A stretch of DNA of 14,783 nucleotides from a virus (IMGVR_UViG_2541047897_000004); one strand, 5' to 3'; positions 115 through 14,783 are shown, counted from the first letter of the stretch. The notes: generated by a model from the letters alone, not told the origin. Numbers and translations are program-made.

Positions 115-190
115 GCCGATATAGCTCAGTTGGTAGAGCAGCGCATTCGTAATGCGAAGGTCGTAGGTTCGACTCCTATTATCGGCACCA
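115..190 (+). tRNA. thrW: tRNA-Thr (anticodon CGU)
   Basis: 76-nt cloverleaf read directly: acceptor stem GCCGATA/TATCGGC, D-loop AGTTGGTA, anticodon loop TTCGTAA with anticodon CGT (reads ACG), T-arm GGTTCGACTCC, encoded 3' CCA. Matches my recollection of enterobacterial thrW, a known integration site. Confidence 0.92.
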
Positions 191-192
191 TT
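172..192. repeat. attL-type direct repeat (3' end of tRNA-Thr, actcctattatcggcaccatt)
   Basis: 21-bp sequence identical to 13313-13333; overlaps the tRNA 3' end, as is typical for tRNA-targeting integrases. Confidence 0.85.
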
Positions 193-794
193 AAGAAAAT
201 CAATAACTTAGCTTAACTTCTCTAAGAAATTGTATCTTCTGTTATCACTTACAAACGCCTATACGTTGTTATGGGCTTTGGTAGTGTAACACGTATGGGC
301 GAGTAGTTCACAGGCTCAACCTCGTAACAAGTTCCTTTGAAGCTGGAAGACGTGCCACCGTCTCTAAACCTTCTACCAAAACTCTTAGCAAGATGTTCCA
401 CACCTGGCGCGGTGTCCAATGATGCTACACGTCGTGAGACGTTGCAGAGGATAAACAGGCTAAATGATGGGAAGAGTTTTAAGTGCATAGTGGATTAAAG
501 CCCACCTCTTCAAAACCTAACTTGATCGGGAAAGAATCAAGCTCTAGCACGGTTTCGTCCACCGGAGTACAACGGGTGCCTGATAAGAGAAGAACTGCTA
601 AGACTTCATAGCTTTTGTGAAAAAGCCCTTTTTAGTGGATACGCCTACGGCGCTTATTTTTTGGTATAACCATCAAAGGCGCTTTATGGCTCCTATTGTC
701 TTGAAAATGTATCTTTACTTGTATTGTGTTTTATGCGTAGCCTTCCTGTGTAGTATGTAACTTGTTAATTTTCATATGAATACAGAGGCACACG

Positions 795-947
795 ATGAAA
801 AACATTGCAGCTATCAAACGTAATAACCGCAAGATTCACGCTCGTAAGTTCCTGTCTACGCCAGAAGGAAAAGCCTGGCTAGAGCGTAAACAGCGAGAGA
901 ACGAAGAAAGAAAACTCCTTAGTGAGTTGAAATGGCTTAAGGATTGA
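795..947 (+). CDS. small basic protein, 50 aa (MKNIAAIKRNNRKIHARKF...), hypothetical
   Basis: ATG at 795 with GAGG 7 nt upstream; ORF below the 60-aa cutoff of the supplied track; lysine/arginine-rich. Function unknown. Confidence 0.35.
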   Translation: MKNIAAIKRNNRKIHARKFLSTPEGKAWLERKQRENEERKLLSELKWLKD

Positions 948-1013
948 ATCACCAGTAGGCGCATAACACATCCAGCGATCAAAGATGTGTTTATGCACCT
1001 GATAGTGAAATTA

Positions 1014-1172
1014 TTAAAGTCGTTTAGTTAACATCGCCATTGCTTGAGCAATAATTGCAACAGCGTCCATCTCTTCACTGGAAGCGATGCAAATGCGGTA
1101 ACTAATAGCCACAACGAATACATCAATAACGAGAAAGTGAATAGTGTGAAGATGTTTTGAAAGTAAATGCAT
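1014..1172 (-). CDS. small hydrophobic peptide, 52 aa (MHLLSKHLHTIHFLVIDVFVVAISYRICIA...), hypothetical
   Basis: ATG preceded by GGAGGA (4-nt spacer) on the minus strand; hydrophobic core consistent with one membrane helix; not in the ORF track because it is under 60 aa. Could be spurious. Confidence 0.25.
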   Translation of the reverse strand: MHLLSKHLHTIHFLVIDVFVVAISYRICIASSEEMDAVAIIAQAMAMLTKRL

Positions 1173-1512
1173 AACTTCCTCCGGTTTTACGATAGGAAGA
1201 TTAGAACATGCATTAAATGATGTTACAAGGGTGGTAATTTACCCTAATAGTCTACTATTCACCTCAATCTACGTCAACCAATATTTGATGTAGATTTAAT
1301 TTTCTTTTAAAAACAATGTGTTGCAATTTGTTGAATTTTGGGGTTAGGTTGTTTTTTGAACGTTTTCATCAAGTGTAAAGATACGTTTAGCCTTCATAGT
1401 GAGTTCAGTTACTGTCTTTTTCTCTGAAATCGGCGCAGACGTGATCAATGTTTAACGCGAAGATCAGCGGCGTCAGGTCCACGCAGCGACAATTCTCAAA
1501 TATCAGGAGGCA

Positions 1513-2064
1513 TTACGCTTCCTGCTCTTTCTTGATACGTTGCACCGTCTGTGTGCTGACACTGAAATCTTTTGCTACGCTCCGAATTGATCCACCATTC
1601 GCGAGAGCGGCAACAATTCCCGCTCGATCAATTGCTTTTCCATTACCACGTTTTGCTATACGTCCAGCGGCCTTAGCTGCGGCGATCCCCTCACGCTGCC
1701 GCTCAAGCATCATTTCACGTTCCATTTGTGCCACTGCTGCAAGCACTGTGAGCATCATATTCCCTGCGGGAGAGTTCTTCCCTGTCTTAAAGTCTTCTTT
1801 ATGGAAATGCACAGACACGCCGCGCTCTGTTAATTGCTCAACCGTTGCCAGTAGGTCGGCTGTATTACGGCAAAGTCGATCAATGCTGTGAACATGCAAA
1901 ACATCACCTTCACGCACATAGTTCATCATTGCCTCAAACTGTGGGCGCTGGGTATTCTTGCCTGACGCTTTATCTTCAAAGACTTTATCAAGAGTTACTC
2001 CAGCTAATTGACGGTCTGTGTTTTGTTGGACAGTCGATACCCTAATGTATCCAATATTAGCCAT
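1513..2064 (-). CDS. serine recombinase (resolvase/DNA-invertase family), 183 aa from the second Met
   Basis: N-terminal IGYIRVSTVQQNTDRQ catalytic-serine motif, DKASG, TVLAAVAQMEREMMLER and a C-terminal HTH (SIRSVAKDFSVSTQTVQRI), all hallmarks of small serine recombinases. AGGA lies 8 nt upstream of the second ATG (2064); the ORF track starts two codons earlier at 2070. Confidence 0.9.
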   Translation of the reverse strand: MANIGYIRVSTVQQNTDRQLAGVTLDKVFEDKASGKNTQRPQFEAMMNYVREGDVLHVHSIDRLCRNTADLLATVEQLTERGVSVHFHKEDFKTGKNSPAGNMMLTVLAAVAQMEREMMLERQREGIAAAKAAGRIAKRGNGKAIDRAGIVAALANGGSIRSVAKDFSVSTQTVQRIKKEQEA

Positions 2065-2593
2065 TTTCATTTTCCTTCTGTGTTGATTTGTGTGTAGTGA
2101 TTATTGATCGTGTTGATTAGGTGTGTAAAGGACTTTTTTCACTACGAAATTCGAAGGTTTTTAGTGTGGTGATTTAGCCTGCTTTATCACTACACGTCTT
2201 GCATGAGAATCATGTAGTTACATTTTGGTAAAATTAGCAAGCTATTAAATAGTGTGTTTATTTTGAAAAAATAATTTTTTGTTGCATTAAAGGAAACTTG
2301 TTCGACAAATAATAGATTGATTTTTAATCAACAATTTCTGATAGTGCTCTGTAAGCCGCATTACACAAGGCTTTGCGAAAGTGATGTAAAAGTGAAGAAA
2401 GTAAGAATTGCACTTTTAAGCTACTTTTCATTGAATTTTTAGTATGGAATTACATAAGGATTAATCATCAATTAATCTTGAATTTAAGCCTGTTTTAGAT
2501 GTTTAATTTTGGTAGCAAGAAACACTTTTAGAAGATCATTGCACAGATGTTATGTGATAAATGGATGTAACGGTAGGTCACTGTGAACTACCC

Positions 2594-2724
2594 CCACAGA
2601 ATTCTGTTATCCTTAACTTTTAAAGAAATATGCACCCTAACAGAAAACTGTTACCCCAACCCTAACAGAATTATGTTATACACCCCCACAGAAAACTGTT
2701 AGCCACCCCTACAGAATTTTGTTA
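2594..2724. promoter_or_regulatory. array of five 16-bp palindromic sites, consensus yAACAG-N4-CTGTTA (iteron/operator-like)
   Basis: Sites at 2594-2609, 2638-2653, 2663-2678, 2686-2701 and 2709-2724, each preceded by a C-tract (cacccc); centre-to-centre spacing 44, 25, 23, 23 bp; site 2 is a perfect palindrome TAACAGAAAACTGTTA. Confidence 0.6.
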
Positions 2725-2841
2725 CCTATTAGATCAACTATCAAACTACAATTAAATTATCTTTTATAAATTCTTTTATCTTTAAAGAATAATTATAGGG
2801 ATACCCGTTAGGGGAGTCCTTGACTATCCCTTAATCTATTG

Positions 2842-3215
2842 GCATTCGCCAGAACCTTGCACAAGTTAGAGTGTTAGTCGTTAGACTGCTTGTCATAACA
2901 CATAGTTTTTGTTTGTTGATGTTAGTTAGTAGATCTATGTTCGCTAATGCCGCTCACAACGAATATGTAATCTACTATGTGCAAATAGCCTACGGCTTGC
3001 GTAAGGCTAAATAGTCTTGCGCTGTGCGCAGAACGATAATTAACTAACTACCATCTAACGATTGAAATTTACTTGTGCAATAACCTGAGCGTAAGCGAAT
3101 GGTTGTTAGTGTCTATGCGCTGTGCGCTTCAATAGTTCCATTGATGAGGCTTACGCCAATCTAACGATCATCAATCATCTAAAATAAATTTCTTGTGCAA
3201 TGTTCTGGCGAATGC
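2842..3215. repeat. 24-bp inverted repeat pair (GCATTCGCCAGAACcTTGCACAAG at 2842-2865; CTTGTGCAAtGTTCTGGCGAATGC at 3192-3215) flanking a 326-bp segment
   Basis: The reverse complement of the left copy matches the right copy at 23 of 24 positions; the intervening segment holds a degenerate ~100-120-bp tandem duplication (gcgctgtgcgc, atctaacgat and cttgtgcaat each occur twice). Confidence 0.6.
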
Positions 3216-3695
3216 AATTAGAGTAGCGTTACCCCTTTGGGGATGCTAACGCATAACTATAGATCAACCATCAAACAGACAAAAAAGAAAAATATGGTTT
3301 AAAGATGTTAGGTAGTAGATGAGATTCTACCGCTTAAATCAAGCCGTAGGCGAGCTAAACGTATATAAGGCAGGGAAACACTTAGCGGTAATAGATTATC
3401 TCGTTATAGAGCTTCTGAGGAGCTTTACAGGTATTTTATAAGGTGTCTGAAATTAGAGTTAATCTATCATCTCCTTTTCATATACCTAACAAATACAAAA
3501 TAAGCCCCTTAAATAAGCCTCTGGCGAGCTAAACAGCCTCTACATAAGGGAATGTATTGTATTTATCAAAACCTCGTCAGAGGGCGTTTTAGAGCGTTTT
3601 AGAGAATAAGGAAGAATAGGAGTACTCGTAAGAGCACGAATTGCTAAGAAAAATTATAACACACTGAAAATGATCAATATTTTTATGGCTAGGGG

Positions 3696-3724
3696 TTGAC
3701 AAAAGCTTTTAGTCGTGGTAAAGT
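3696..3724 (+). promoter_or_regulatory. sigma70-like promoter candidate (TTGACA-17 bp-TAAAGT) for the small-protein operon
   Basis: Perfect -35 hexamer at 3696-3701, 17-bp spacer, -10-like TAAAGT at 3719-3724; about 120 bp upstream of the first ORF at 3848. Confidence 0.4.
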
Positions 3725-3847
3725 AATATTAGGGACAGAAAACATTCTTATCCTCTAAGTAATTAAACCAATGCACCGCACTTTGAAGCCCAACAAGGCT
3801 TGCAAGGTGTTTTTTCTTTTAACCAAATAGAATAAGGAGGCTAATTA

Positions 3848-4024
3848 ATGAAATATTTTACTCCACAGGATGTAGTTGAAGCCTGGAAACGTGGTGAGAT
3901 TAATCGTTTTAAAGTAAGGATGAACAGGAACACAGCGCGACGCTGTGGTTATCCAGAGCGTGAAAAATGCTTTGACGATGCACTAAAAATTATTGATGAA
4001 CTGCGTAAGGCAGAGAAAGAATAA
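3848..4024 (+). CDS. small protein, 58 aa (MKYFTPQDVVEAWKRGEINRFKVRMNRNTARRCGYPEREKC...), hypothetical
   Basis: ATG preceded by a consensus AAGGAGG 7 nt upstream; absent from the ORF track only because it is under 60 aa. Confidence 0.6.
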   Translation: MKYFTPQDVVEAWKRGEINRFKVRMNRNTARRCGYPEREKCFDDALKIIDELRKAEKE

Positions 4025-4045
4025 TAACAGGAGAAGGAGAAAACT

Positions 4046-4216
4046 ATGAGCGAAACTACAGAAAAGAAAAGACAACCACGCACTTGCTTTCATATTCCTG
4101 ATGAAGTATTTCAGGTGTTGTTTAAAGAAGCCAGAAGTAAACGTATCACTGTTACAGATTACATTCTTGATATGTTGAAAAGAGAGGCTGAAACACTCTC
4201 AAACAAAAGCAAGTGA
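4046..4216 (+). CDS. ribbon-helix-helix (CopG/Arc-like) DNA-binding protein, 56 aa
   Basis: GGAGAAGGAG upstream of the ATG; sequence RTCFHIPDEVFQVLFKEARSKRITVTDYILDMLKRE fits the beta-strand/helix/helix pattern of RHH regulators and antitoxins; under 60 aa so not in the track. Confidence 0.6.
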   Translation: MSETTEKKRQPRTCFHIPDEVFQVLFKEARSKRITVTDYILDMLKREAETLSNKSK

Positions 4217-4269
4217 TTTTTATCACCATAGTAGCGCCGTAGAGCGTGATTACATCAAGGAGATTTTTA

Positions 4270-4839
4270 ATGATTAATGAAGAACAATTTGTAAAAGTTC
4301 CTATGTGGATTCTAAAAATAAGCCAAGTAAACGGGCATAAATTTACAGATAGTGCTAAAAACCTTTACTGCTATTTGAGAGGGTTTGATCGTGCATTTCC
4401 CTCTTACGCTAAGATAGGCGATGTTTTTGGCATAACACCAAGAGCAGCAGAAGAAAGGGTTAAGAAATTGCTCGAAATGGGATTAATTATAAAAGATGCA
4501 CGACCAGGAAGCTCTAACCTTTATCGAGTGCTTGATATTCCAAAAGGAGAATCATCACTACCTGATCCTTCTGAGAAAGAAGACGAATCTAATGGAATAT
4601 TGAATGTTTCCGAAATCATCATTGAAGAAGAAACACAGGAATCAGAGTTCCCTGAGCGGCCCGAAATTTTTACTTGGCTTCTTTCCCTTGATAAGAAGAA
4701 ACCACCACACGAAGAAACAGAAGATTTTGTAAAACGAGCATTAGATTCAAAGAATATCTATCTTTGTGAAAATGATTTTGACTCTTTGATAATTGATCTC
4801 AAAAGTGAGAGCACAATATATGATTCACTACCCTTCTAA
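4270..4839 (+). CDS. winged-helix/HTH DNA-binding protein with acidic C-terminal tail (possible replication initiator or regulator), 189 aa from the ATG
   Basis: AAGGAG 6 nt upstream of the ATG at 4270 (the track's 4246 start is a GTG); N-terminal ...LYCYLRGFDRAFPSYAKIGDVFGITPRAAEERVKKLLEMGLI resembles wHTH domains of plasmid/phage replication-organiser proteins; C-terminus is rich in Asp/Glu. Family assignment is by eye only. Confidence 0.75.
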   Translation: MINEEQFVKVPMWILKISQVNGHKFTDSAKNLYCYLRGFDRAFPSYAKIGDVFGITPRAAEERVKKLLEMGLIIKDARPGSSNLYRVLDIPKGESSLPDPSEKEDESNGILNVSEIIIEEETQESEFPERPEIFTWLLSLDKKKPPHEETEDFVKRALDSKNIYLCENDFDSLIIDLKSESTIYDSLPF

Positions 4840-4848
4840 GGAGAATAA

Positions 4849-5118
4849 ATGACTTATAACATCACTATAGGAAACAAAACTATTGAAATAACTGAAAGCG
4901 GATACAACATTTTAAAATCTATTTTGGACATAGAGTTCTCACCCCCGACAGTGGTTAGCTTTTGTAGTTTAGGCGGCTACAGCGCACAACACGTGAATCA
5001 TTGGTTAAACCATTTTACATCGTTCGGTGTGCTGGATTATGAAGGGATTAACAGCACTACATTTCGTCTTTTGAAATTAAACAAAGATTTTGAATTGTTT
5101 ATCACAAACAATCAATAA
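4849..5118 (+). CDS. hypothetical protein, 89 aa
   Basis: AAGGAG 5 nt upstream of the ATG; co-directional and tightly packed with neighbours; no recognisable motif. Confidence 0.7.
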   Translation: MTYNITIGNKTIEITESGYNILKSILDIEFSPPTVVSFCSLGGYSAQHVNHWLNHFTSFGVLDYEGINSTTFRLLKLNKDFELFITNNQ

Positions 5119-5214
5119 CAACAGATCGGGCAATACATATGGCAAATGCATTTATGGCGATATTCATCGTAACTATGGCATTCAGTTTTTATAATCCACA
5201 TAAAAAGAGGGAAA

Positions 5215-5598
5215 ATGGGAAGAAAGAAAAAGAACAACTTAAAACGTATTGAAAAAAACAGTAATTTCAATTCAACAAGACAACGTCCACCGACACATAC
5301 CAATAACGAAATTCCAGGGGAAGAGATAATCTTTATTCTTGAAACAGAATCCCCTGAATTAAGTGATGAAGAATTAGAAATAATCCAATCAATGCCAGGC
5401 GTTTACTTTCGCCCAAGAACAAGAAAACAAACTATCATTTCTGATGGCACTCTGAAACGTTGGCAGCTTTTAGGGTTTAGCTCCTATCATCATTTTTTGG
5501 GATTTAACGCTTTCAATAATTGTGTAGGTGGTGCATCGGAAGTCGATCTGATGGCTCATTTAGAAGATACATTAGCTTCTAACAAACGTTCTAACTAA
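5215..5598 (+). CDS. hypothetical protein with basic N-terminus, 127 aa
   Basis: AGAGGG Shine-Dalgarno upstream of the ATG; N-terminal MGRKKKNNLKRIEK; no recognisable catalytic motif. Confidence 0.65.
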   Translation: MGRKKKNNLKRIEKNSNFNSTRQRPPTHTNNEIPGEEIIFILETESPELSDEELEIIQSMPGVYFRPRTRKQTIISDGTLKRWQLLGFSSYHHFLGFNAFNNCVGGASEVDLMAHLEDTLASNKRSN

Positions 5599-5655
5599 TA
5601 AAATGATGGGTGTATGTATAAGCGCCCAATGAAAATATTCGAAAAAGGAAAAATA

Positions 5656-5859
5656 ATGATTGGCTATATTCAAGAAACACAATTATTTCAGATGATCCTG
5701 TCTGATGCAAAAAACTATGCTGAGTTAATTCGGCTGGCAAAAGAAACAGAAGACTACGAAGCATTAGAGCGTTACCGTGATGAAGTGCTGACGCTCAAGA
5801 CACCTTTTAACATCGTATTGAATATGATTAATGATGCATTACAAGGAGAAGACGCATAA
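5656..5859 (+). CDS. small acidic protein, 67 aa (ORF extends to 5614 for 81 aa)
   Basis: AAGGAAA 5 nt upstream of the internal ATG at 5656; stop overlaps the next start (TAATG at 5857-5861), implying translational coupling; net negative charge. Confidence 0.6.
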   Translation: MIGYIQETQLFQMILSDAKNYAELIRLAKETEDYEALERYRDEVLTLKTPFNIVLNMINDALQGEDA

Positions 5860-6167
5860 TGGAAGAAGATATTAGCAATGCAATGGAACAACTTTTAGAT
5901 CTGACTATCTCACTACAAACAAGAATAAATCAAGCCTATTCAGATTTATGCGATTACACGCTCTCACAATGCGTTATTAGCTTAATGAAGGTGAATGTAA
6001 GCCTTGACGATTTTATCTCTCTGGTGAGCGATTTAGAGCTATCAGAGGACGATGCAAAACAGTGTAATCAAATCATCACAGACATCGCCACCACGTTAAA
6101 GGTTGCAAGTGAAGAGATTCAGCAATTAGTAGATGATTTAGCAAAAAGTGCTATTTTCTCTAAATGA
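5859..6167 (+). CDS. strongly acidic small protein, 102 aa (about 19 Asp/Glu versus 6 Lys/Arg)
   Basis: ATG overlaps the upstream stop; AGGAGA upstream; composition counted directly from the translation. Confidence 0.7.
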   Translation: MEEDISNAMEQLLDLTISLQTRINQAYSDLCDYTLSQCVISLMKVNVSLDDFISLVSDLELSEDDAKQCNQIITDIATTLKVASEEIQQLVDDLAKSAIFSK

Positions 6168-6443
6168 TAATGAAAATTATTTGCATTTATAATGATTTTG
6201 TTATATAATAATTTTAGGGGTAGATAAAAAGATTTTAGTTGGTGTTAATCCTTCTACTGTCATAAATCCCTGCATATGGAAGGTGATAGCCTCAAAGGTT
6301 GAGTGGCATTAACCTCTAACAAATATTACCTTCCATCTCTCAAGAAGTTTTAGAATAATCATAACTCCCTCTTTGATTGTTGATTGTTGATTGTTTCTAC
6401 GTTGTGTTGATGAATGTTGTTAGGCATTGTGCTTAATTTTGAT

Positions 6444-6490
6444 AAAAGCGGGTAGGTGTTATCTCCTTGCCCTTCCCGCTTTTATTTTTC
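6444..6490 (+). terminator. rho-independent terminator candidate downstream of the small-protein operon
   Basis: AAAAGCGGG (6444-6452) pairs with CCCGCTTTT (6475-6483), followed by ATTTTTC. Confidence 0.55.
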
Positions 6491-7028
6491 ATCTATGCTT
6501 ATCCTAAAGCTCCTTATTTTGTCCGAAAACATTAAAGAGCCTTACACTGATAGTTATATTTTATAACTATTTACTAACATCATTAAACTCTTATTTAATG
6601 ACGGAAGTTAGTAACAGAATAATCTATTAAGTTGTTGTCAAAAACAATCATCTGCATAGCGTTAGCCGCAAGCAGAGAGAGTTTAGCTAAGAATTGTGCA
6701 ATAACCTTTGGAAATATTGATAGCAAAACGGGTTTTATAGACTGCAAATCTATAATCTTTGGTTGTAAAAACGCTTTTTCTGAAACGGTAGATTATTGTT
6801 GGTGTAGTTAATTCTATTAAAATTTGATCTGTGAGTAGATGAGAATTGGAATAGTGATTCCTTAAAGCCTTACTTTGTTGCATCCACAGCAAAAACAGGC
6901 AGCGGTTAGCCACCGCACCCAGAATATCAGATCTTAGTGATTCCAGTGGCAAACTCCTAAGAGCCTTCCTTTCTAAGGTCTGATATTCACTCTTTAAGCA
7001 TATCATCAAGTATATTTAAAAAGTGTAT

Positions 7029-7056
7029 TTGCTGATATGTTTAATCCTCTTATAGT
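7029..7056 (+). promoter_or_regulatory. sigma70-like promoter candidate (TTGCTG-16 bp-TATAGT) upstream of the cargo block
   Basis: Hexamers read directly at 7029-7034 and 7051-7056; followed by a terminator-like hairpin (AAGCCCC 7091-7097 / GGGGCTT 7130-7136 plus T-run) in the leader. Confidence 0.3.
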
Positions 7057-7169
7057 TTAACTTATCAATTATGTAATTGCCCGCACGTTAAAGCCCCTTT
7101 GCTGGTCAGAATTAACCTCTTACGGCATTGGGGCTTTTTATTTGTCTGGCACTAACAGGAACGTTATTT

Positions 7170-7367
7170 ATGAAACAAGAAATGATTATCAGCAAAGACG
7201 GGGAAACGATGATTGTTAGTGATGAAAACCTCATTAAGGTTGCCGCACTGTTGGGAGTTACTCCCGAAAGTCTTCGTTCTACCACTGCTCAATTATTTAA
7301 ATCGGCTGATGCGGTTAGTCTTGCTGATGCCCTTAAATCTAAAATTAAACAACTGAAAGGAAAATAA
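7170..7367 (+). CDS. small protein, 65 aa, possible HTH (…LIKVAALLGVTPESLRS…)
   Basis: ATG at 7170 with AGGA 9 nt upstream; the track's longer form starts at a TTG (7128) that overlaps the leader hairpin. Confidence 0.55.
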   Translation: MKQEMIISKDGETMIVSDENLIKVAALLGVTPESLRSTTAQLFKSADAVSLADALKSKIKQLKGK

Positions 7368-7371
7368 TCTT

Positions 7372-7755
7372 ATGGCTAACCCATATGGAAAATTAAAAGC
7401 AGTGAATGCGGATAATTCCCGTTCACGCTGTAAGGTAGTAGCTTACGCTGCTGATCCAGTGCTGCAAGATCGCCTCGTCAAACTGGCTTCACCTCTCACT
7501 GACGATCTTATTGTCGGGGCTTTGCTGAAAGCCGATGGCACCAAAGCAACAACCGCATCTGATATTGCTCACGTAGTAGTTGAACCGGCTTATGAAGGAC
7601 AGGAAAGCGTAGTGGTTGCACATCCTACTTTCGTTATTCTGGCTGAAGATGGGATTGAATTTAACAGCATGGAAAAGGCAAGTGTTATTGCAAAACTGCA
7701 ATCTCTCGGCTTTGTAATTGCTGGTTATGAAGAACTTGCGATCCCTACGACTTAA
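7372..7755 (+). CDS. hypothetical protein, 127 aa
   Basis: AAGGAAAA upstream; 4-bp gap after the preceding gene. I compared it to lambda D and U type small virion proteins and could not confirm either. Confidence 0.8.
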   Translation: MANPYGKLKAVNADNSRSRCKVVAYAADPVLQDRLVKLASPLTDDLIVGALLKADGTKATTASDIAHVVVEPAYEGQESVVVAHPTFVILAEDGIEFNSMEKASVIAKLQSLGFVIAGYEELAIPTT

Positions 7756-7769
7756 CAAGGAAAATAATA

Positions 7770-8801
7770 ATGAATGATTTATCAACATATTTTGGCGTTA
7801 ATACTGCGGTAGTAACTCCATTTGCTTATGAGAATGCACTTAATACCCTGATTACTAATCTCGATCTGTTCGATGTGCAATATCATACAGAAAACAGCAT
7901 TCTTCTTACCGACCTGATTGATCAGTTTGTGCAGGTAGCTGGGGAAACCTCGCCTTACGCTCAAAGCGACTGGAACGCCTCTAAACGTCAGGAATGGTCA
8001 AACAAACTTTTCCAGATGAAACACGTCGGCAGTATTAACGCTGTTACTTCTCGTGACCTGGAACAATACAGCCGCCAATATCCAAACCGTTCTGATGCTA
8101 TGCTGGTAGCGGTTAATGATTTCTCTGAGGCTCATTACCGTTCACACGCAAACCGTGTTGAAGTGGATCTGATTACCGCGCTGCTGGGACTGAAAGTTGA
8201 ATCTGAATATGCCGGACAAGGTGATCTCGACTTCCTCGACGGTCAGGCTAAAACCACGGTACCCGCTATCGACTTTGCATCGACTACTGTTAACCCGTTC
8301 CTTGCTATTCGTAAAGCGGTGCGCTTACAGAGTGAAAAGCTGGGGTCTGGTCTTGCTGCAAAGCGAACTGGTGTAATTATCTTTGCTGCTGGCGCTGCTG
8401 CTGATGGTTTGTCATCTAACCCGCTGATCAGTGACATGGTGAAATATGCAGGTGATGCGAGTGCTACGGCCCTGTTTACCCGTATGGTTGATTCTAACCC
8501 AGCCTATGACTCTTTCCAGATTGGTGGGATCACTGTTATTGATGTGTCAATGTTTCCTGAGATTGTTGCTCACATCGGAGAGAACGGTTTCGCAATTGTC
8601 CCGGTAATGGATAAATCGGTACAGTGTTACCAGCTTCACACAGGCGTTGGTGTGCGTCATGCTGAGTTAGGTCAAGATGCCGTGTTGCATCACCAATATC
8701 TAATCAAGGATGAATTCCAATTCCCATCTGTGGTTACTGAGACATCTTATCTGCCAGTAAACAACATTCCGCAAGCTATCATCTTCGGATCTGCTGCGTA
8801 A
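7770..8801 (+). CDS. hypothetical protein, 343 aa (possibly virion-structural-like; unverified)
   Basis: AAGGAAAA upstream; long clean ORF with higher GC than the left half of the element (by eye); Gly/Ala-rich segment GVIIFAAGAAADG; no Walker A, HxH or other catalytic motif seen. Size and position are compatible with a capsid or major tail subunit, but I see no diagnostic motif. Confidence 0.8.
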   Translation: MNDLSTYFGVNTAVVTPFAYENALNTLITNLDLFDVQYHTENSILLTDLIDQFVQVAGETSPYAQSDWNASKRQEWSNKLFQMKHVGSINAVTSRDLEQYSRQYPNRSDAMLVAVNDFSEAHYRSHANRVEVDLITALLGLKVESEYAGQGDLDFLDGQAKTTVPAIDFASTTVNPFLAIRKAVRLQSEKLGSGLAAKRTGVIIFAAGAAADGLSSNPLISDMVKYAGDASATALFTRMVDSNPAYDSFQIGGITVIDVSMFPEIVAHIGENGFAIVPVMDKSVQCYQLHTGVGVRHAELGQDAVLHHQYLIKDEFQFPSVVTETSYLPVNNIPQAIIFGSAA

Positions 8802-8954
8802 TAAAGCATTAATAGACGATTCCCATCGTCTGGAAAATAAGGGTAAAGGGATTACCTAACCTGTAGGCGCAAATACAGTAACGAATCTCTTTGCCTTTTT
8901 TGTTTTTCTACTGTCTACAAACCCAAATAAAAATATATATGTGAGAGAAAACCA

Positions 8955-9152
8955 ATGAACACAGAAAATTCACAGGCATTAATTCTTAAGTCTGTAAAAG
9001 AACTGGCAGCTATTAGCGATGACTCAATAATCAATGTCAGTGCCTTATGCAGAATGCTTTCAATTGATGCAAATAATGTGCGGCAGCGTGTGTTTCAGAC
9101 TGGGTGCAGCACTTTTGAAGCAATTACATACTACTGTTCTAAAAAACAATAA
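8955..9152 (+). CDS. small protein, 65 aa, HTH-like (…INVSALCRMLSIDANNVRQRV…)
   Basis: ATG with GAGAGA upstream; helix-turn-helix-like segment; sits between the 343-aa and 633-aa genes. Confidence 0.55.
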   Translation: MNTENSQALILKSVKELAAISDDSIINVSALCRMLSIDANNVRQRVFQTGCSTFEAITYYCSKKQ

Positions 9153-9186
9153 CAAACAACAATCATAATACAGGGAAACAATTAGC

Positions 9187-11088
9187 ATGTTAGAAATTAG
9201 CGCCTCACGAATTAGTAATGTTGTGACATTTACCACTGATTTCAAGAGCTTACAGAAAGCTAAGAATGAAGTGGATAAGCTACAAAAGAAGATGCAGGGG
9301 ATCAAACCTGTGCAAGTGGCGGCAGCACGTCAGAAAGATTTACAGAGGCTGGGAAAAGAGATTCAGCGCCAGCATGATCAGCATGTTAAGCAGGCTGTTA
9401 AATCTGAGACACAGGCATCTAAAGCCAGCACTAAACAGAAGCTACAGGAAGCTAAAAACCTCGCTAAAGCACAGGCTAAACGAGCCTCAATTGCTGAAAA
9501 GGCAGAGATCAAGCGCCTTGCATCATATCGCCAGTTACAAGGCATCAAGAACAATTCCCGCTATGGCGAAGGGATGGATATTAAGAAATATCACGATGCT
9601 CTACGTTACATTAAGGAACAAACCCGCCTCTATGAATCCGGCGCTATATCGCAAGCGAAGATGAATGCCCTGATCCGTGACCGCATCACATTAGAAAGAC
9701 GAGCCGCAGCCGCTGCTACGCGTCGTAATGCTGCCGCTGGGGGGGTATATCCAGTTACTTCTAAGAAGCTCCACAAAGAAGGTGTTAGCGGCGGTGGCGC
9801 GTTAATGATGGGCGGTGTTGGTGGCATTATCGGCGGCGCTGCCGTTGGCTTAGGAAGTATGGCTGTATCCGCTGGAATGGAAAAAGCCCGTGAACGTATG
9901 GAATTGCAGAAGATGAGCGATCTGGTAGGTGCCGATAGCAATCAGGTGGCTGCAATGGTTAATTGGGGGAGGGCAAACGGTGTATCAAGTGCAAGCGCGG
10001 ACAAGACCACTGATAATATCAAAGACTTAAACGAACGCATTGGTCATCAAAGCCGAACTGCTGAATGGGATAGTAAGAAAAAAGAGTGGCGAGGCGGGGA
10101 AGGATCATTAAATGATATTCAGAATGCCTTTGCATGGAACAAAGATAAGATAGCTTCCTACCAGGGGCGACCGCTGCAACTCTTGCAAGACGTGGTGAGA
10201 GAAGGTGAACGCCGAGGAATGACTAAAGAAGCCATCATATCCCTGATCGAACCATTAGCAGACGATGCCAGCCATTATCTCAAGATGTTTTCCCGTGATG
10301 GGGAAGAGTTCCGTAAAACGATGGTTGATATGGAAAACAACGGGCAGCTACTGACAGAAGCACAGAAAGAGCAATATCGCGCAGCTAACAAGACAGCTAC
10401 AGCCTTTGACCGTCTGACAGATGGACTATCGAATCAGGCTATTTTGGGCTTCTTTGATGGCATAGCCAACATGCCAGCACTCAAACCGGAAGAAAGCAAA
10501 GCCTTACAGAATGCAGCTTATGGTGTTGGTGCATCGTTCGGGGATTTGGCTAAACAAGGCGCTGTATTACTGACCTCTATGACTTCTTACGGGAATCAAA
10601 TCACAAGCTGGATTAATAAACATCTTAGCCGTGGTGAGAATGATAACCGACCTGAGACACAAAAGGTTATGGACGCTGTTACAGATGGGGAATGGTCGCC
10701 ATCAACGATTATCAATGAAGGTATTCGTTATGCAACTGGACTCGATACGAAAGATGTAGGGCGTATTGTGCGCGGTGAGGAAACACAGTCCGGCGTTCCA
10801 GGGTGGTGGACTGATTTAATTAATGGCAATGCTAACAGCTACGGATCAACCCTTGTTGCACGTAAAGCAGAAGCCTATCAGCCGACTGTAAGCCTACAAC
10901 GTCAATACGCAACCCCTGTTAACGTGAATGCACAGGTTACGGTGCCGAGTGATATGATCTCTGTTAACGTCATCCCTAACGGTCCCGGCTTTCAGGATTT
11001 AATCCGCACTGAGATCAGAGCGAACAACAATCAGTTTAGTTCGAATCTGATTCTTAGCACGTTGTCAGGACAGAGTAGCGTTAACTAA
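9187..11088 (+). CDS. large coiled-coil protein with Gly-rich hydrophobic segment, 633 aa (tape-measure-like; unverified)
   Basis: N-terminal ~180 aa is K/Q/A/E-rich with heptad-like character; GGGALMMGGVGGIIGGAAVGLGSMAVSAGM hydrophobic glycine-zipper segment; no nuclease or ATPase motif. This architecture is common in phage tail tape-measure proteins, but I cannot confirm homology. Confidence 0.8.
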   Translation: MLEISASRISNVVTFTTDFKSLQKAKNEVDKLQKKMQGIKPVQVAAARQKDLQRLGKEIQRQHDQHVKQAVKSETQASKASTKQKLQEAKNLAKAQAKRASIAEKAEIKRLASYRQLQGIKNNSRYGEGMDIKKYHDALRYIKEQTRLYESGAISQAKMNALIRDRITLERRAAAAATRRNAAAGGVYPVTSKKLHKEGVSGGGALMMGGVGGIIGGAAVGLGSMAVSAGMEKARERMELQKMSDLVGADSNQVAAMVNWGRANGVSSASADKTTDNIKDLNERIGHQSRTAEWDSKKKEWRGGEGSLNDIQNAFAWNKDKIASYQGRPLQLLQDVVREGERRGMTKEAIISLIEPLADDASHYLKMFSRDGEEFRKTMVDMENNGQLLTEAQKEQYRAANKTATAFDRLTDGLSNQAILGFFDGIANMPALKPEESKALQNAAYGVGASFGDLAKQGAVLLTSMTSYGNQITSWINKHLSRGENDNRPETQKVMDAVTDGEWSPSTIINEGIRYATGLDTKDVGRIVRGEETQSGVPGWWTDLINGNANSYGSTLVARKAEAYQPTVSLQRQYATPVNVNAQVTVPSDMISVNVIPNGPGFQDLIRTEIRANNNQFSSNLILSTLSGQSSVN

Positions 11089-11161
11089 GTTTAACGATAA
11101 CTAATAATAAAGCGGGGGCAATATTTATTGCTTTCCGCTCATTACACAAGGATTAATATAA

Positions 11162-11818
11162 ATGGCTATCAAAGAAAGTCAGATCAACAGCACATCTAAC
11201 ATTAATACATCTAACAGCAAGGTTAAATCTGATAACGGATTTGCCATTATATGTAGCAACCTGAATAACGAGAATGCATCAACGATAGCCAGTTATAAAG
11301 CTATTACTTTTGACGCTGTTCCGGCAACTAAGGTTTCACGTTCTGCCGATGTTACATCGTATCCTGTGCAGGATGGTAATGATGTATCTGATAATGTCAG
11401 GATCAAGAATAATAAACTTATGCTTTCAGGCATTATTACAGAAACACCATTAGCATTACGTGGTGATATGCTATCAAGTGCAGGGGTGAACGGTAACAGG
11501 TGTTCACAGGCTATTGCTTATCTTGATGAAATAATGAATGCCAGACAGCCTATTATTGTAAGCACAGAGCATAAGACGTTTGATAATATGATTCTGACAG
11601 GCATTGACTACGAATATAAAACAGAATCAGCTTTACAGTTTGATTTGCAGTTCGAACAGATAAGATTAGTGAGTTATGCAACTACTAACGCTATTGCTGT
11701 AAAGACCGCATCACCTAAGAGCACAGGCGGACAGGTAAAAAGCCAAGTGCCAACCAATGCAGGAACAGCCAGCACCACTAAAGACACCCTTCCGACGTAT
11801 GACGGAGAAGTGAAATAA
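11162..11818 (+). CDS. hypothetical protein, 218 aa (possibly tail-associated; unverified)
   Basis: AAGGA upstream; Ser/Thr/Asn-rich termini; follows the 633-aa gene in the position a distal-tail protein would occupy if that gene is a tape measure. Confidence 0.75.
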   Translation: MAIKESQINSTSNINTSNSKVKSDNGFAIICSNLNNENASTIASYKAITFDAVPATKVSRSADVTSYPVQDGNDVSDNVRIKNNKLMLSGIITETPLALRGDMLSSAGVNGNRCSQAIAYLDEIMNARQPIIVSTEHKTFDNMILTGIDYEYKTESALQFDLQFEQIRLVSYATTNAIAVKTASPKSTGGQVKSQVPTNAGTASTTKDTLPTYDGEVK

Positions 11819-11852
11819 TCCCTATAAAGAACGATGTAGCGAGATAATCATA

Positions 11853-11888
11853 AAAGAGGCTACCAATCTATATTGAAGCCTCTTTATT
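11853..11888. terminator. bidirectional hairpin terminator between convergent genes
   Basis: AAAGAGGCT (11853-11861) pairs with AGCCTCTTT (11877-11885), 15-nt loop, T-run after; lies between the stop of the 218-aa gene (plus) and the stop of the integrase (minus). Confidence 0.55.
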
Positions 11889-11892
11889 ACGT

Positions 11893-13170
11893 CTATAGCG
11901 TTGTTTTACGCCTTAAATTTGATTTTTTATTGATTGATAAGCCTTTCTCTATTTCAGGGTAGCGTAAAAGCTCAATATATTTTTTAAGCTCTATTGGAGA
12001 AGCTGCATTTTTGCTATATGTGCGGAATGTTTCTGTATTGCCGCGTGTATGGCCCAGGAGAAGGGCGATCCTGTCTTCTGGAATTTGATTTCGATCAAGA
12101 AGCTGTGCTACTCCGTGTCTCAGAGAATGAAACACCTTCCTTTCTGTTCCCTTTTCCCCTAAAGCCTTTCGTTTAGCTCTTGTAAATCTCTGCGTATGCC
12201 ACGTGGAACGTTTACCATCAGCACGCTCTGTAATGCTGGCGTGATAGAACAAAAAGCCATTGTGAGGCTTTTCACGCAGCGACAACACCAACGGAGTGAT
12301 AAGGCTATGCACAGGCACAAGACGTGCCGCAGCTTTCGTTTTTCCCTGTGTGATTTCAAAACACAGCACACCTTCGATCTCTTTCACATCGTCTATTGTG
12401 AGACTTGCTATCTCATTGATCCGCATACCTGTATATAAACCGATAAGACACAAAGCCATCATTTCTTTGTTTTCTGCTGAATTACCGGAAAATACTTGCA
12501 ACACCTGCAATAGCTCTTTGTTAGAAAATGCCTCGTAGCTCTCTCTACTTTGTGCCACATCAAGCCTATGCCCTCGCCAGGGGGAGAGCGCCCTTTCTGG
12601 CGCATCGTGGTAACGTGATGAAGCTAATTCCCATAGCTGGGCCATTGGGCTGATATAATTTGCAATTGATTGTTGTGAAAGAGTTTTTTGCATGTGTTCA
12701 ATCCAGCCTGTAACAGTGGTGCGGCTTACATCTTGCAATGCAATATCAGGCTTTTTACGGTAGGAGAGAAACATCTCTACCGCTTTTCTTGCCTTAGCTA
12801 AAGTGGCTGGCTTCTTCTTCGTGCTGTTAATTGTCAGGTAGATTTCAAGAATTTTAAGCAATGACGGACACGAAGACGCTGTATCTTGCATTCTGGTAGC
12901 TGTTTTGGCGTATTTAGCCTTACTGCGTAACAGTTCCAGCGTGTTTTCTATTGTGCTGTTTACAGGGGCAACACTCTCCCGTAAGCAATGGTATTCATCT
13001 GCAATCTGATCACGCTTTCTACGTGCAACACGAAGATTACTTGTGTGCAGACTTCTGACAAACGTCCTTTTTCCTTCAAAAAAGGGCTGCATATACACAG
13101 GCAGCGTGATCCTTAAATAGTAGTTACCGTAAGAATCACAGATTAAGTATTGGTTAGGCTTGTATCTCAT
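11893..13170 (-). CDS. tyrosine recombinase / phage-type integrase, 425 aa from the RBS-supported ATG
   Basis: C-terminal catalytic region with HSLRHGVAQ and LLGHTRGNTETFRTYSK (R/H/R/Y tetrad pattern); adjacent to the right att repeat. GGAG lies 5 nt upstream of the ATG at 13170; the track's longer ORF starts at a TTG (13257) with no Shine-Dalgarno. Confidence 0.9.
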   Translation of the reverse strand: MRYKPNQYLICDSYGNYYLRITLPVYMQPFFEGKRTFVRSLHTSNLRVARRKRDQIADEYHCLRESVAPVNSTIENTLELLRSKAKYAKTATRMQDTASSCPSLLKILEIYLTINSTKKKPATLAKARKAVEMFLSYRKKPDIALQDVSRTTVTGWIEHMQKTLSQQSIANYISPMAQLWELASSRYHDAPERALSPWRGHRLDVAQSRESYEAFSNKELLQVLQVFSGNSAENKEMMALCLIGLYTGMRINEIASLTIDDVKEIEGVLCFEITQGKTKAAARLVPVHSLITPLVLSLREKPHNGFLFYHASITERADGKRSTWHTQRFTRAKRKALGEKGTERKVFHSLRHGVAQLLDRNQIPEDRIALLLGHTRGNTETFRTYSKNAASPIELKKYIELLRYPEIEKGLSINKKSNLRRKTTL

Positions 13171-13312
13171 AAAATCTCCGGCTAAAGTGTCGGAGCGTTT
13201 GTAATGTGAAAATTGATTGTGACGCATAGAAAATGATGATTTTTCTATAAGATTCAATCAATTAGTAATGGTCGTAGGTGATGGCATTAACACGAGATTA
13301 ATCGAGTGTTTT

Positions 13313-13333
13313 ACTCCTATTATCGGCACCATT
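13313..13333. repeat. attR-type direct repeat (partial tRNA-Thr 3' end)
   Basis: Exact 21-bp copy of 172-192; a further 10-bp tRNA match (ggtcgtaggt, 13270-13279 versus 159-168) lies upstream, separated by a 33-bp insertion. Confidence 0.85.
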
Positions 13334-13485: not shown

Positions 13486-13824
13486 GTGAAACTCAATGCC
13501 CGTCAAATAGACACTGCCAAGCCAAAAGAGAAGGCTTACAAGTTGGCTGATGGTGGTGGTCTGTACCTCCTGGTAAAACCTGGTGGAGGAGAATATTGGC
13601 GTCTCAAGTATCGTGTAGCTGGTAAAGAGAAGCTGTTAGCACTAGGTGTGTATCCTGAGGTCACCTTAGCTGATGCTCCTGCAAAACTTGAAGAAGCTAA
13701 AAGAGGTATCTCTGGGGGAATCGATCTGATGGAAGTGAAGCGAGAGGAAAAGATTGCCCGGGAAACGCAGTTAAACAACACCTTCAAAGATATTGCCCTT
13801 GAGTGGCACAGTAACAAATTATAA
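13486..13824 (+). pseudogene. truncated N-terminal fragment of a P4-type (tRNA-associated) integrase, 112 codons
   Basis: Translation …ARQIDTAKPKEKAYKLADGGGLYLLVKPGGGEYWRLKYRVAGKEKLLALGVYPEVTLADA… matches the conserved arm-binding N-terminus of P4-family integrases as I recall them; the ORF stops after 112 codons with no catalytic domain and AT-rich non-coding DNA follows. Confidence 0.7.
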
Positions 13825-14258: not shown

Positions 14259-14753
14259 TCAATTAACATTAAGGTTTGATAATAATTTTTTGTTGGCGAG
14301 TTCAAATGTTTTCATTTCATCATCTGATAGCCCGCTCCAGATTTTCTTTAGCATTACATTTTGAGTGTTTATTAGTTTTTGAGCAAGTGTAACTCCGTCA
14401 GGGGTTAAGCAAATACTTTTGCTTCGACGATCGTTTTTATTATTAATTCTTTTGGCAATATTCTTTTTTTCTAATTTGTCTATGATGTGTGTGATGTTTG
14501 TTTTGGAGAATTGTAACTCCTTGTAAATATCAGAAGGGGACTGACAATAATCATCAGACATATATAATGAAACTAACACCATAAATGTTGAAGTGTTTAT
14601 TCTATACTCGCTCAATTCATTTTCTATAATACTCTGGATTTTGTCATTTACTCTAATATATAAGTGTATTAACAGACTCTCCTGAGCCGGGTATGCCGGA
14701 TTTTTGATTTTTTTGTAGTTTGTTATAGTTTTTAATAAATCTATATTATTCAT
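14259..14753 (-). CDS. MarR-family winged-helix transcriptional regulator (PapX/SfaX-like 17-kDa type?), 164 aa from the internal Met
   Basis: Wing motif …RINNKNDRRSKSICLTPDGVTLAQ… (DRR…LT..G) typical of MarR regulators; the ORF is open to the window edge at 14783, so the true start could be upstream. The PapX-like subfamily is a recollection, not verified. Confidence 0.75.
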   Translation of the reverse strand: MNNIDLLKTITNYKKIKNPAYPAQESLLIHLYIRVNDKIQSIIENELSEYRINTSTFMVLVSLYMSDDYCQSPSDIYKELQFSKTNITHIIDKLEKKNIAKRINNKNDRRSKSICLTPDGVTLAQKLINTQNVMLKKIWSGLSDDEMKTFELANKKLLSNLNVN

Positions 14754-14783
14754 AATTCCACCACACGGCAAAAGAAAACTCAT

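Follow-up and report, generated by a model that had tools for sequence, protein, structure and literature searches.

What kind of mobile unit occupies the 13.1 kb behind the threonine tRNA gene thrW in the 14,783-nt viral contig IMGVR_UViG_2541047897_000004 (this whole stretch is referred to below as the window)? The original prediction described a combination of an iteron-bearing plasmid-like module, two recombinases and unknown cargo, possibly representing an under-described class of small integrative element. Our analysis indicates that the element is probably an integrative satellite of virulent Stephanstirmvirinae phages and belongs to an undescribed family, whose way of working would resemble that of the Vibrio PLEs, with no detected sequence kinship to them. 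As its helpers we propose virulent myoviruses with a size of about 150 kb, namely Phapecoctavirus (phAPEC8, Mt1B1_P17) and Justusliebigvirus (phi92).

Boundaries, mobility and relatives of the element

The element is bracketed by a perfect direct repeat of 21 bp (172-192 = 13313-13333, 21/21), which is still 24/26 identical when widened from 167/13308; by our own arithmetic, the chance expectation for such repeat pairs in 14.8 kb is about 2.5e-5. The window corresponds to the proBA-thrW region of E. coli, a locus also found in strain ZJ3920, and an Rfam scan of it revealed the tRNA and no other family. A synthetic empty site, in which positions 1-192 were joined to 13334 onward, was searched for in 5426 complete E. 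coli genomes. The empty junction was uninterrupted, at 99.9% identity, in 781 of them (including Nissle 1917 and ATCC 11775), while at least 80% of the whole window was matched in 38. Genomes thus either contain the element exactly from repeat to repeat or have none of it, and the 781 empty-site genomes keep the right-hand flank. This was the check proposed originally, and it bears out the earlier claim that 21-bp repeats delimit the element at a tRNA-Thr gene.

A second, independent insertion with the same ends (172..13321) was identified in the IncF plasmid pEND_Eco 19019-1 (NZ_CP126938.1, region 8001-25084), a conjugative IncFIB/FIC plasmid of avian pathogenic E. coli (APEC). This copy, itself broken by three IS3-family insertions, lies within the 43-bp repeats of the sopC centromere, directly after sopAB, and its junctions read ...CACTCATATT / ATCGGCACCAT... 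and ...TTTTACTCCTATT / GTTAGTCTG... (the slash marks the junction). The sopC target and the thrW core are alike at 16/25 positions (our own count), and judging by the plasmid junctions, crossing over took place within TATT or beside it. The sopC insertion appears to be the product of integrase-mediated recombination at a secondary site, and the junctions as a whole identify the element as a discrete mobile unit, inserted site-specifically at thrW and once at sopC. The plasmid copy may also have a conjugative route of spread at its disposal, and may disturb the partition function of its carrier.

The region 145-213, made up of the 3' half of the tRNA gene and some 20 nt from the left end of the element, shares 91-94% identity with the attP region of the lambdoid phages SfI, SfII, SfV, SfX, HK75 and mEpX2, which use the same thrW site with a different integrase arrangement. 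In our search of the phage collection, DNA similarity to the P22/SfV group was confined to the tRNA/att region (145-210). The lone match to the circular attP junction in a viral contig (IMGVR_UViG_2778261152_000005, L019/L033) was rejected as a circle: it is a tandem array behind a P22/Sf6-like prophage at thrW, which imitates the junction because the right end of the prophage has the same GTGTTTTACTCCTATT... arm. ORF (open reading frame) translations of that prophage include a lysozyme, a spanin-like protein and an acyltransferase-like membrane protein. Among the relatives of the element, no terminal overlaps indicating circular contigs were found.

The element belongs to a family. Relatives of its capsid protein are few: among 1.84 billion cluster representatives, 60 were found at E <= 1e-3, and 11 at E <= 1e-30. 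Complete relatives use tRNA-Gly(CCC) as their insertion site; the one in E. coli measures 14.3 kb and has repeats of 22 bp, that in Klebsiella 12.7 kb with repeats of 21 bp. The suggestion of an under-described class was correct. Relatives of the capsid gene also occur in Citrobacter, Buttiauxella, Kluyvera, Kosakonia, Phytobacter, Scandinavium, Raoultella and Yersinia, and in most of these eight genera it is adjoined by the genes of a 127-aa protein and of a protein resembling a tape-measure protein (TMP). The common layout begins with a small recombinase, about 2 kb of non-coding DNA, small ORFs, a winged-helix protein and a 127-aa protein. Beyond a further non-coding stretch come another 127-aa protein and the capsid protein, then a small ORF ahead of the TMP-like protein, which in some cases has a Dit-like protein behind it, and the layout ends with a DUF6538-type integrase reading inward. 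The core genes are under purifying selection, with a ratio of non-synonymous to synonymous substitution rates (dN/dS) of 0.1-0.3. The small recombinase is not among them, as two E. coli copies do without it and Klebsiella has one of the tyrosine type. In IMG/VR, several copies lie within predicted proviral contigs.

Virion genes, phage terminus and replicon

The cargo that had been taken as unknown is in fact a partial virion module homologous to proteins of Stephanstirmvirinae phages. The TMP homologue is 32% identical to the Phapecoctavirus TMP over 450 aligned positions and matches the solved phi92 baseplate protein Phi92_gp134 at 1e-48; both of its ends are conserved with the helper TMP, and over its first 45 nt (15 codons) its gene agrees at 82% with the beginning of the TMP gene in the phage. 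The tail-tube initiator is 64% identical to the Mt1B1_P17 protein encoded directly after the TMP, and matches the solved phi92 baseplate protein Phi92_gp135 (1.9e-68) as well as a protein designated "tube initiator protein". Relatives of these two proteins are found almost only in phages of the Stephanstirmvirinae type (Phapecoctavirus, Justusliebigvirus/phi92). The block encoding them (9202-11835) occurs in at least two alleles, whose TMPs are 26% and initiators 53% identical, within flanking DNA that is 96-99% identical.

The Pfam family Phage_cap_E was matched by 11/15 members of the capsid protein family. A structure model of the capsid protein was of low confidence (predicted local distance difference test score, pLDDT, of 56) and served as support only; all its fold matches at E <= 2e-4 were phage capsid proteins, including the ICP1 coat, PhiTE, Bas63, Sf14 and lambda gpE, and the weaker ones were capsid and encapsulin shells. 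The sequence is 23% identical to that of the Mt1B1_P17 capsid protein. The 127-aa protein encoded directly upstream is, from its position alone, possibly a decoration or scaffold protein; comparing its profile with the equivalently placed phage protein and with sequences of the PDB yielded nothing, and its structure model (pLDDT 44) was unusable. The 65-aa ORF ahead of the TMP gene had no family match in profile scans and is a possible tail-assembly chaperone or accessory protein.

Neither terminase, portal, primase and helicase genes nor those for sheath, tube and lysis were found by Pfam, PHROGs or NCBIfam, in keeping with the earlier observation that no terminase, portal, primase or large helicase is visible. 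Because terminase, portal, sheath, tube and lysis genes are lacking, the element cannot make a virion alone, and this incomplete gene set points to dependence on a helper.

The identity of the helper is suggested by a non-coding segment near the left end, which had been overlooked in the original prediction. Positions 1427-1505 are 81-87% identical to 150846-150926 and 1-52 of Mt1B1_P17, a phage whose direct terminal repeat (DTR) comprises positions 1-328 (= 150875-151202). The segment was matched by 65 phage records; those listed are of the Phapecoctavirus type, with the match mostly in unannotated DNA, and many of the listed matches are situated about 270-360 nt from the end of the record. 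Two conserved boxes, TTAACGCGA (1452-1460) and CAAATATCA (1497-1505), lie on either side of a centre that is lineage-specific. The E. coli copies L013 and L015 contain a different central segment, 93.5-95.7% identical to Justusliebigvirus phages, which in phi92 spans the end of the annotated DTR-L (1-343); this match to another phage lineage was predicted beforehand and then tested. A third version was revealed in the Klebsiella element L005, in which the centre matches the terminal-repeat boundary of the Klebsiella Stephanstirmvirinae phage phi1_175008. In an alignment of three phage and three element sequences, the boxes TGCTTAACGC and CAAATATC are common to all six. In Mt1B1_P17 and phi92, the two phage records (deposited independently of each other) where the repeat boundary could be read, it falls within CTTAACGCGA, to 1 nt. 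Three lineages of the element thus track three phage lineages at what is most probably the site cut by the terminase; in the window, the cut is predicted between 1453 and 1454.

The match of L005 was seen only by direct comparison with the Klebsiella Stephanstirmvirinae phage. Searching the whole phage collection with this element gave only a match of 48 nt (5956-6001, 87.5%) to non-coding DNA in the terminal-repeat region of T5-like Salmonella phages, near the record end in several records and under an annotated repeat region in one. The stretch is probably promoter-like; it lies upstream of the promoter of the operon and could represent a strong-promoter element common to both. Separately, the sequence AAATCAAGCCTATTCAGATTT at 5927-5947 of the window matches a block situated 25-45 nt inside the other DTR end in Mt1B1_P17 (284-304) and phi92. 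The pattern was derived after the match had been seen, and we leave its status uncertain; if real, it would give the satellite a "terminal repeat" of 4.5 kb.

The replication module provides a further link with these phages. The iteron motif ACAGAAnnnTGTTA has six matches against 0.48 expected, a number reached in 0/200 shuffles. The winged-helix initiator is conserved in its C-terminal domain and occurs with at least four alleles of its N-terminal DNA-binding domain; in the plasmid copy, the N-terminus is divergent and the C-terminus about 88% identical. The iteron block (about 2590-2740) and the N-terminal domain (about 4064-4546) have been replaced together in at least 7 of 13 E. coli copies, and because they co-vary, the data support their being a cognate origin-initiator pair. 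The serine recombinase, iteron array, winged-helix protein and inward-reading tyrosine integrase noted originally were all recovered. Their interpretation as a plasmid or phage-plasmid replication/partition-resolution unit is supported by co-variation as regards the iteron-initiator pair. As a whole it is not the most fitting one, as scans of the ORFs with Pfam, PHROGs and NCBIfam revealed no genes for partition, mobilisation or conjugation and the serine recombinase is not conserved. A phage satellite with an iteron replicon is a better description.

The same initiator domains are present in a phage protein. Gp053 of Mt1B1_P17 (328 aa, 4042-5028) consists of two winged-helix domains and a C-terminal nuclease. 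The first domain is 99% identical to initiator allele 1, which is that of the window (99.2% at the DNA level), the second is 83% identical to allele 3, and the C-terminus is a nuclease of the T5orf172/MUG113 type (GIY-YIG superfamily; PHROG endonuclease 2.4e-18). Its occurrence among phages is sporadic: the full-length protein was found in no more than four distinct ones, namely Mt1B1_P17, BI-EHEC, muut and inny. We considered whether iterons in the phage genome might account for the shared domain, and rejected this: across the whole 151 kb of Mt1B1_P17 the motif is not above chance. Because it is not above chance in a phage which carries gp053, we regard the protein as a candidate origin-directed anti-satellite nuclease. 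A counterpart is known from phage ICP1, in which the PLE origin is the target of Odn, a T5orf172 nuclease joined to a domain that shares 42% identity with the part of PLE RepA that binds DNA (PMC8263062). Judged by its domains, gp053 shares the architecture of Odn.

The satellite interpretation and its alternatives

We lean, with some reserve, towards a joint and more specific proposition: that the element is the founding member of a new Enterobacterales family which builds its own capsid shell on the helper portal and scaffold, forms chimeric tails, is packaged through its copy of the phage terminus and is engaged in an arms race of the Odn type. Infection by the helper would lead to integrase-mediated excision, and replication would start from the iterons through the winged-helix initiator with replisome proteins of the host or helper; in copies that have a small recombinase, this enzyme may resolve multimers. 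The helper terminase would then recognise the copied boundary, cut it near 1453/1454 and package satellite DNA into small capsids formed by the satellite capsid protein on the portal and scaffold of the helper. The tails would be chimeric, consisting of helper sheath, tube, baseplate and fibres together with the satellite TMP and tube initiator, and helper reproduction would probably be lowered. Gp053, bearing the origin-binding domains of the satellite itself, would represent the phage response, from which the satellite would escape by swapping its iteron/initiator and TMP/tube-initiator alleles.

Several observations weigh against this interpretation. Excision, replication and encapsidation are putative, no sign of them having been obtained from the sequences searched. 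No portal, scaffold or protease gene was found in the element, and co-assembly of its capsid on the helper portal and scaffold is putative, the capsid proteins being only about 23% identical. The attP junction of a circular form had no match in metagenome contigs, the records of the phage collection did not contain the element, and neither an excisionase nor an induction switch was identified. The terminus of Mt1B1_P17 is not annotated and was inferred from a 328-bp repeat with which its record begins and ends. A clear copy exists for one terminal-repeat boundary only; the match at 5927-5947, a weak candidate for a second site, falls in coding sequence and is missing from the copies L008 and L019. 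Finally, the Pfam nuclease domain of gp053 scores just under the curated cut-offs.

Some of these points could also be accommodated if the element were a mobile defence island, in which poison subunits are supplied in the form of the TMP, tube initiator and capsid protein, and the copied terminus is a terminase decoy, so that phage assembly is aborted and the island spreads only via its integrase plus conjugation or generalised transduction. Interference with tail assembly is used by satellites and islands (PMC11364771; Rta in PLE11), one copy is carried by a conjugative IncF plasmid, no sign of encapsidation was obtained from the phage-collection records or contig searches, and gp053 as a phage counter-weapon fits a pure defence element equally well. 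However, an iteron replicon and a precise, lineage-matched cut-site copy in fixed orientation are the needs of a packaged element, and a complete capsid protein with a conserved neighbour, both under purifying selection across genera, exceeds what a decoy requires. In addition, the PADLOC defence-system models gave no meaningful match in the ten proteins scanned (a set outside which the capsid, TMP, tube-initiator and integrase proteins lie). We therefore consider a defence island unlikely, while the two lifestyles are mutually compatible and it is plausible that the defence function partly coexists with that of a satellite.

Even less support is available for a helper-independent, integrative plasmid-like element (an iteron replicon with a resolvase) that has acquired unrelated phage-derived cargo. 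The iterons, the initiator-like winged-helix protein and the resolvase-type recombinase would be expected of it; however, partition, mobilisation and conjugation genes were not found among the scanned ORFs, the recombinase is dispensable in related elements, and the copied terminus, its co-variation with phage lineages and the chimeric phage nuclease would be left unexplained, which makes this possibility very improbable. It is scarcely credible that a prophage, small or larger, decayed to this form and kept a few structural genes by chance: for all its phage-type integrase, capsid and tail genes and the assignment of several copies to predicted proviral contigs in IMG/VR, the same compact set of intact ORFs recurs in other genera and in complete att-bounded elements at tRNA-Gly in E. 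coli and Klebsiella, dN/dS is 0.1-0.3, the RefSeq annotation contains no pseudogenes, the move into the plasmid was recent and precise, and the nearest phage relatives are strictly virulent, non-integrating and 150 kb in size.

A satellite of virulent Stephanstirmvirinae, the reading we prefer, has then to be placed among known systems. PLEs use a large serine recombinase, whereas the element has a tyrosine integrase at a tRNA gene and an initiator of a different fold family (HTH_36/Rep-O-like). Its hosts are Enterobacterales, its proposed helpers Stephanstirmvirinae, and it encodes its own capsid protein, while PLE remodels the ICP1 coat with the scaffold TcaP (entry 8g1r). By domain content, homologues of RepA_N, CapR, NixI and LidI were not found (no PLE-specific profiles were run). 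The likenesses would concern the way of working: a virulent myovirus as helper, an iteron-initiator replicon with several alleles, and a phage that counters with a T5orf172 nuclease borrowing the DNA-binding domain of the initiator (Odn, PMC8263062). Both also encode a TMP and a baseplate-hub-type protein; chimeric tails were demonstrated for PLE11, PLE1 and PLE4, while here the genes alone were found, and the swapping of TMP/tube-initiator alleles is reminiscent of the two tmp-tac types of PLEs (PMC12987554). In the literature searched, the coverage of which was incomplete, we found no description of satellites of Phapecoctavirus, phAPEC8 or Stephanstirmvirinae.

Phage-inducible chromosomal islands which form capsids (cfPICIs) have terS, int, alpA and a primase gene in their core. 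This core comprises 11 components, including terL, portal and head-tail adaptor/connector genes, and the detection model treats tail genes as "forbidden" (PMC10085698). The element is similar to the cfPICIs of Enterobacteriaceae in being integrative, in its size class (about 10-15 kb) and in encoding an HK97-fold capsid protein. Of the core set, however, it has only the integrase and the capsid protein; terL, portal, connectors, terS, primase and AlpA were not found, while a TMP, a Dit-like tube initiator and a copy of the terminal-repeat site of a virulent phage are present. Some cf-PICIs are reported with putative tmp genes (legend to Extended Data Fig. 10 of PMC12987554). The element also differs from PICIs in general, as primase, AlpA and TerS were not matched and it has tail genes; because these are forbidden components, SatelliteFinder would not report it (PMC10085698).

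With P4-like satellites the element shares integration at a tRNA gene in enterobacteria, and P4, as is proposed for the element, carries a copy of the packaging site of its helper (cos) and uses the structural proteins of the latter. Alpha primase-helicase, Sid, Psu, Delta and Epsilon were not detected in the element (Pfam, PHROGs, NCBIfam), and P4 has neither capsid nor tail genes. The helper of P4, P2, is a temperate cos phage, unlike the virulent helper with direct terminal repeats proposed here, and the packaging-site similarity of the element is to the DTR boundaries of Stephanstirmvirinae, not to P2. The EPIPs of Mycolicibacterium, compared by description, are likewise a small satellite class, reported to have a capsid protein and a TMP, and differ in their serine integrase, TerS, head-tail adaptor/stopper, temperate helper and actinobacterial host (PMC12822802). 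TMP-encoding satellites were first reported in 2025-2026, for PLEs and EPIPs (PMC12987554, PMC12822802). Compared with a lambdoid or P22-like prophage at thrW, the element is much shorter (13.1 kb versus 35-45 kb) and lacks full morphogenesis, lysis and immunity modules. The initial view that it does not fit the usual prophage, P4-like or PICI layouts was justified.

The VAT-PAI of APEC was reportedly described, by Parreira and Gyles in 2003, as a single pathogenicity island. In APEC Ec222 (AY151282) it occupies the same chromosomal place as the element, between thrW and vatX-vat, and comprises 33 ORFs, of which vatX is ORF26 and vat ORF27 (PMC6956023). From position only, ORF1-25 probably correspond to the element; if they do, it was sequenced in 2003 and not recognised as a separate unit. 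The 13.1 kb studied here differ from such an island in forming a separate mobile unit, absent from the 781 genomes which keep the right flank. On its right side, attR is succeeded by a P4-type integrase truncated to the arm-binding domain (13486-13824) and by the MarR-family regulator VatX (14259-14783), after which vat comes in related genomes. Because these genes are found there, we conclude that the element is inserted in tandem ahead of an older, decayed island.

Further features and significance

The coordinates of all features are compiled in Table 1.

Table 1. Features of the element and its integration site (positions in the window; a dot denotes a feature without strand)
Feature	Position	Strand	Evidence and remarks
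thrW tRNA-Thr(CGT)	115..190	+	ARAGORN; Rfam tRNA 71.8 bits; 3' end is the integration target (attB)
attL core, left copy of 21-bp repeat	172..192	.	Repeat search and empty-site junction
50-aa basic protein	795..947	+	tblastn: 74-78% identical in Citrobacter, Kluyvera and Raoultella relatives; RefSeq CDS
Mimic of helper terminal-repeat boundary, putative pac/cleavage site	1427..1505	+	Non-coding; DNA similarity to phage DTR boundary
Small serine recombinase, resolvase/invertase type	1513..2070	-	Pfam Resolvase 1e-38
Five iterons CCnnACAGAAnnnTGTTA	2585..2727	+	Putative replication origin; copies at 2590-2727
34-nt inverted repeat (arms 2832-2865 and 3192-3225)	2832..3225	.	Arms 88% complementary, enclosing 326 bp; between iterons and operon promoter
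Sigma-70-like promoter TTGACA-17-TAAAGT	3696..3724	+	Ahead of 3848-6167 operon
Two small ORFs, 58 and 56 aa	3848..4216	+	Conserved in relatives; second weakly Arc/ribbon-helix-helix-like
Winged-helix initiator	4246..4839	+	HTH_36 6e-4; PHROG replication initiators 1e-8; RefSeq start about 4270
Four ORFs, 89, 127, 81 and 102 aa	4849..6167	+	dN/dS 0.16-0.46
Small ORF and 127-aa core protein	7128..7755	+	Directly upstream of capsid gene; dN/dS 0-0.24
Major capsid protein, HK97 fold, lambda gpE type	7770..8801	+	Pfam Phage_cap_E in family; fold matches; dN/dS 0.12-0.31
65-aa ORF	8955..9152	+	Just upstream of tape-measure gene; conserved in several relatives
Tape-measure protein (TMP) homologue	9187..11088	+	PHROG 16051 1e-71
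Tail-tube initiator / Dit-like baseplate protein	11162..11818	+	Pfam Dit_like 5e-28
Tyrosine integrase (DUF6538, SAM-like and catalytic domains)	11893..13257	-	Pfam; reads inward; same type in relatives
attR core, right copy of 21-bp repeat	13313..13333	.	Repeat search and empty-site junction

The serine recombinase matches the Tn3 and gamma-delta resolvases (1e-27) and Gin (1e-25), and is probably an accessory gene for multimer resolution. It is the E. coli copies L013 and L015 that lack it, and in Klebsiella its place is taken by a 186-aa tyrosine recombinase. In L013, a 183-aa protein with an N-terminal hydrophobic, signal-like segment is encoded instead (3670-4221), which may be variable cargo. 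We also considered an invertible promoter switch, an idea prompted by the 34-nt inverted repeat and by a serine recombinase of the size of Hin, and rejected it, as 13/13 copies have the same orientation and some are without the recombinase. The 50-aa basic protein, for which profile scans gave no family match, is a candidate excision or regulatory factor, and the 58-aa and 56-aa ORFs encode probable regulators. Of the four ORFs downstream of the initiator, that of the 127-aa protein (5215-5598) is a core gene among the related elements.

The surroundings of the operon promoter (3577-4261) are 68% conserved with the Klebsiella element, and a hairpin followed by a T-run, read by eye from the sequence, is located in the operon leader near 3773-3815. 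In the ZJ3920 copy, two short segments corresponding to 3030-3110 and 3361-3504 of the window (about 98 and 175 alignment columns) are missing. They are bounded by short direct repeats (TGCGCTGTGCGC; CTTAAATAAGCC...GCTAAAC), and because such repeats lie at their edges, slippage or recombination within the non-coding region is suggested. A strong predicted fold (z = -3.7) was detected in non-coding DNA at 6205-6495, together with a sigma-70-like promoter (6180-6209) and a terminator-like T-run hairpin near 6447-6490; this region is a candidate for a small RNA with a length of about 280 nt. Conservation with the relative of the glyU type is absent across the gap as a whole (6167-7128).

If our interpretation is correct, the element and its relatives constitute a new type of satellite, which current detectors exclude by design (tail genes being "forbidden"), and part of the classical pathogenicity island VAT-PAI has to be re-read as a separate mobile parasite. 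It would offer a tractable satellite-helper system in E. coli and its relatives, involving strictly lytic phages relevant for therapy, and would correspond in E. coli to what ICP1 and PLE are in Vibrio. Allele swapping, chimeric tails and phage nucleases directed at the origin, all discovered recently for the Vibrio PLEs, would then have evolved independently outside them. Phages of the phAPEC8 and phi92 types infect APEC, K1 and extraintestinal pathogenic E. coli (ExPEC) strains, and the element would thus affect phages developed against APEC and ExPEC. Strain-level resistance to Stephanstirmvirinae phages, or a lower yield of them, would be the consequence in the approximately 1% of E. coli genomes which carry it.

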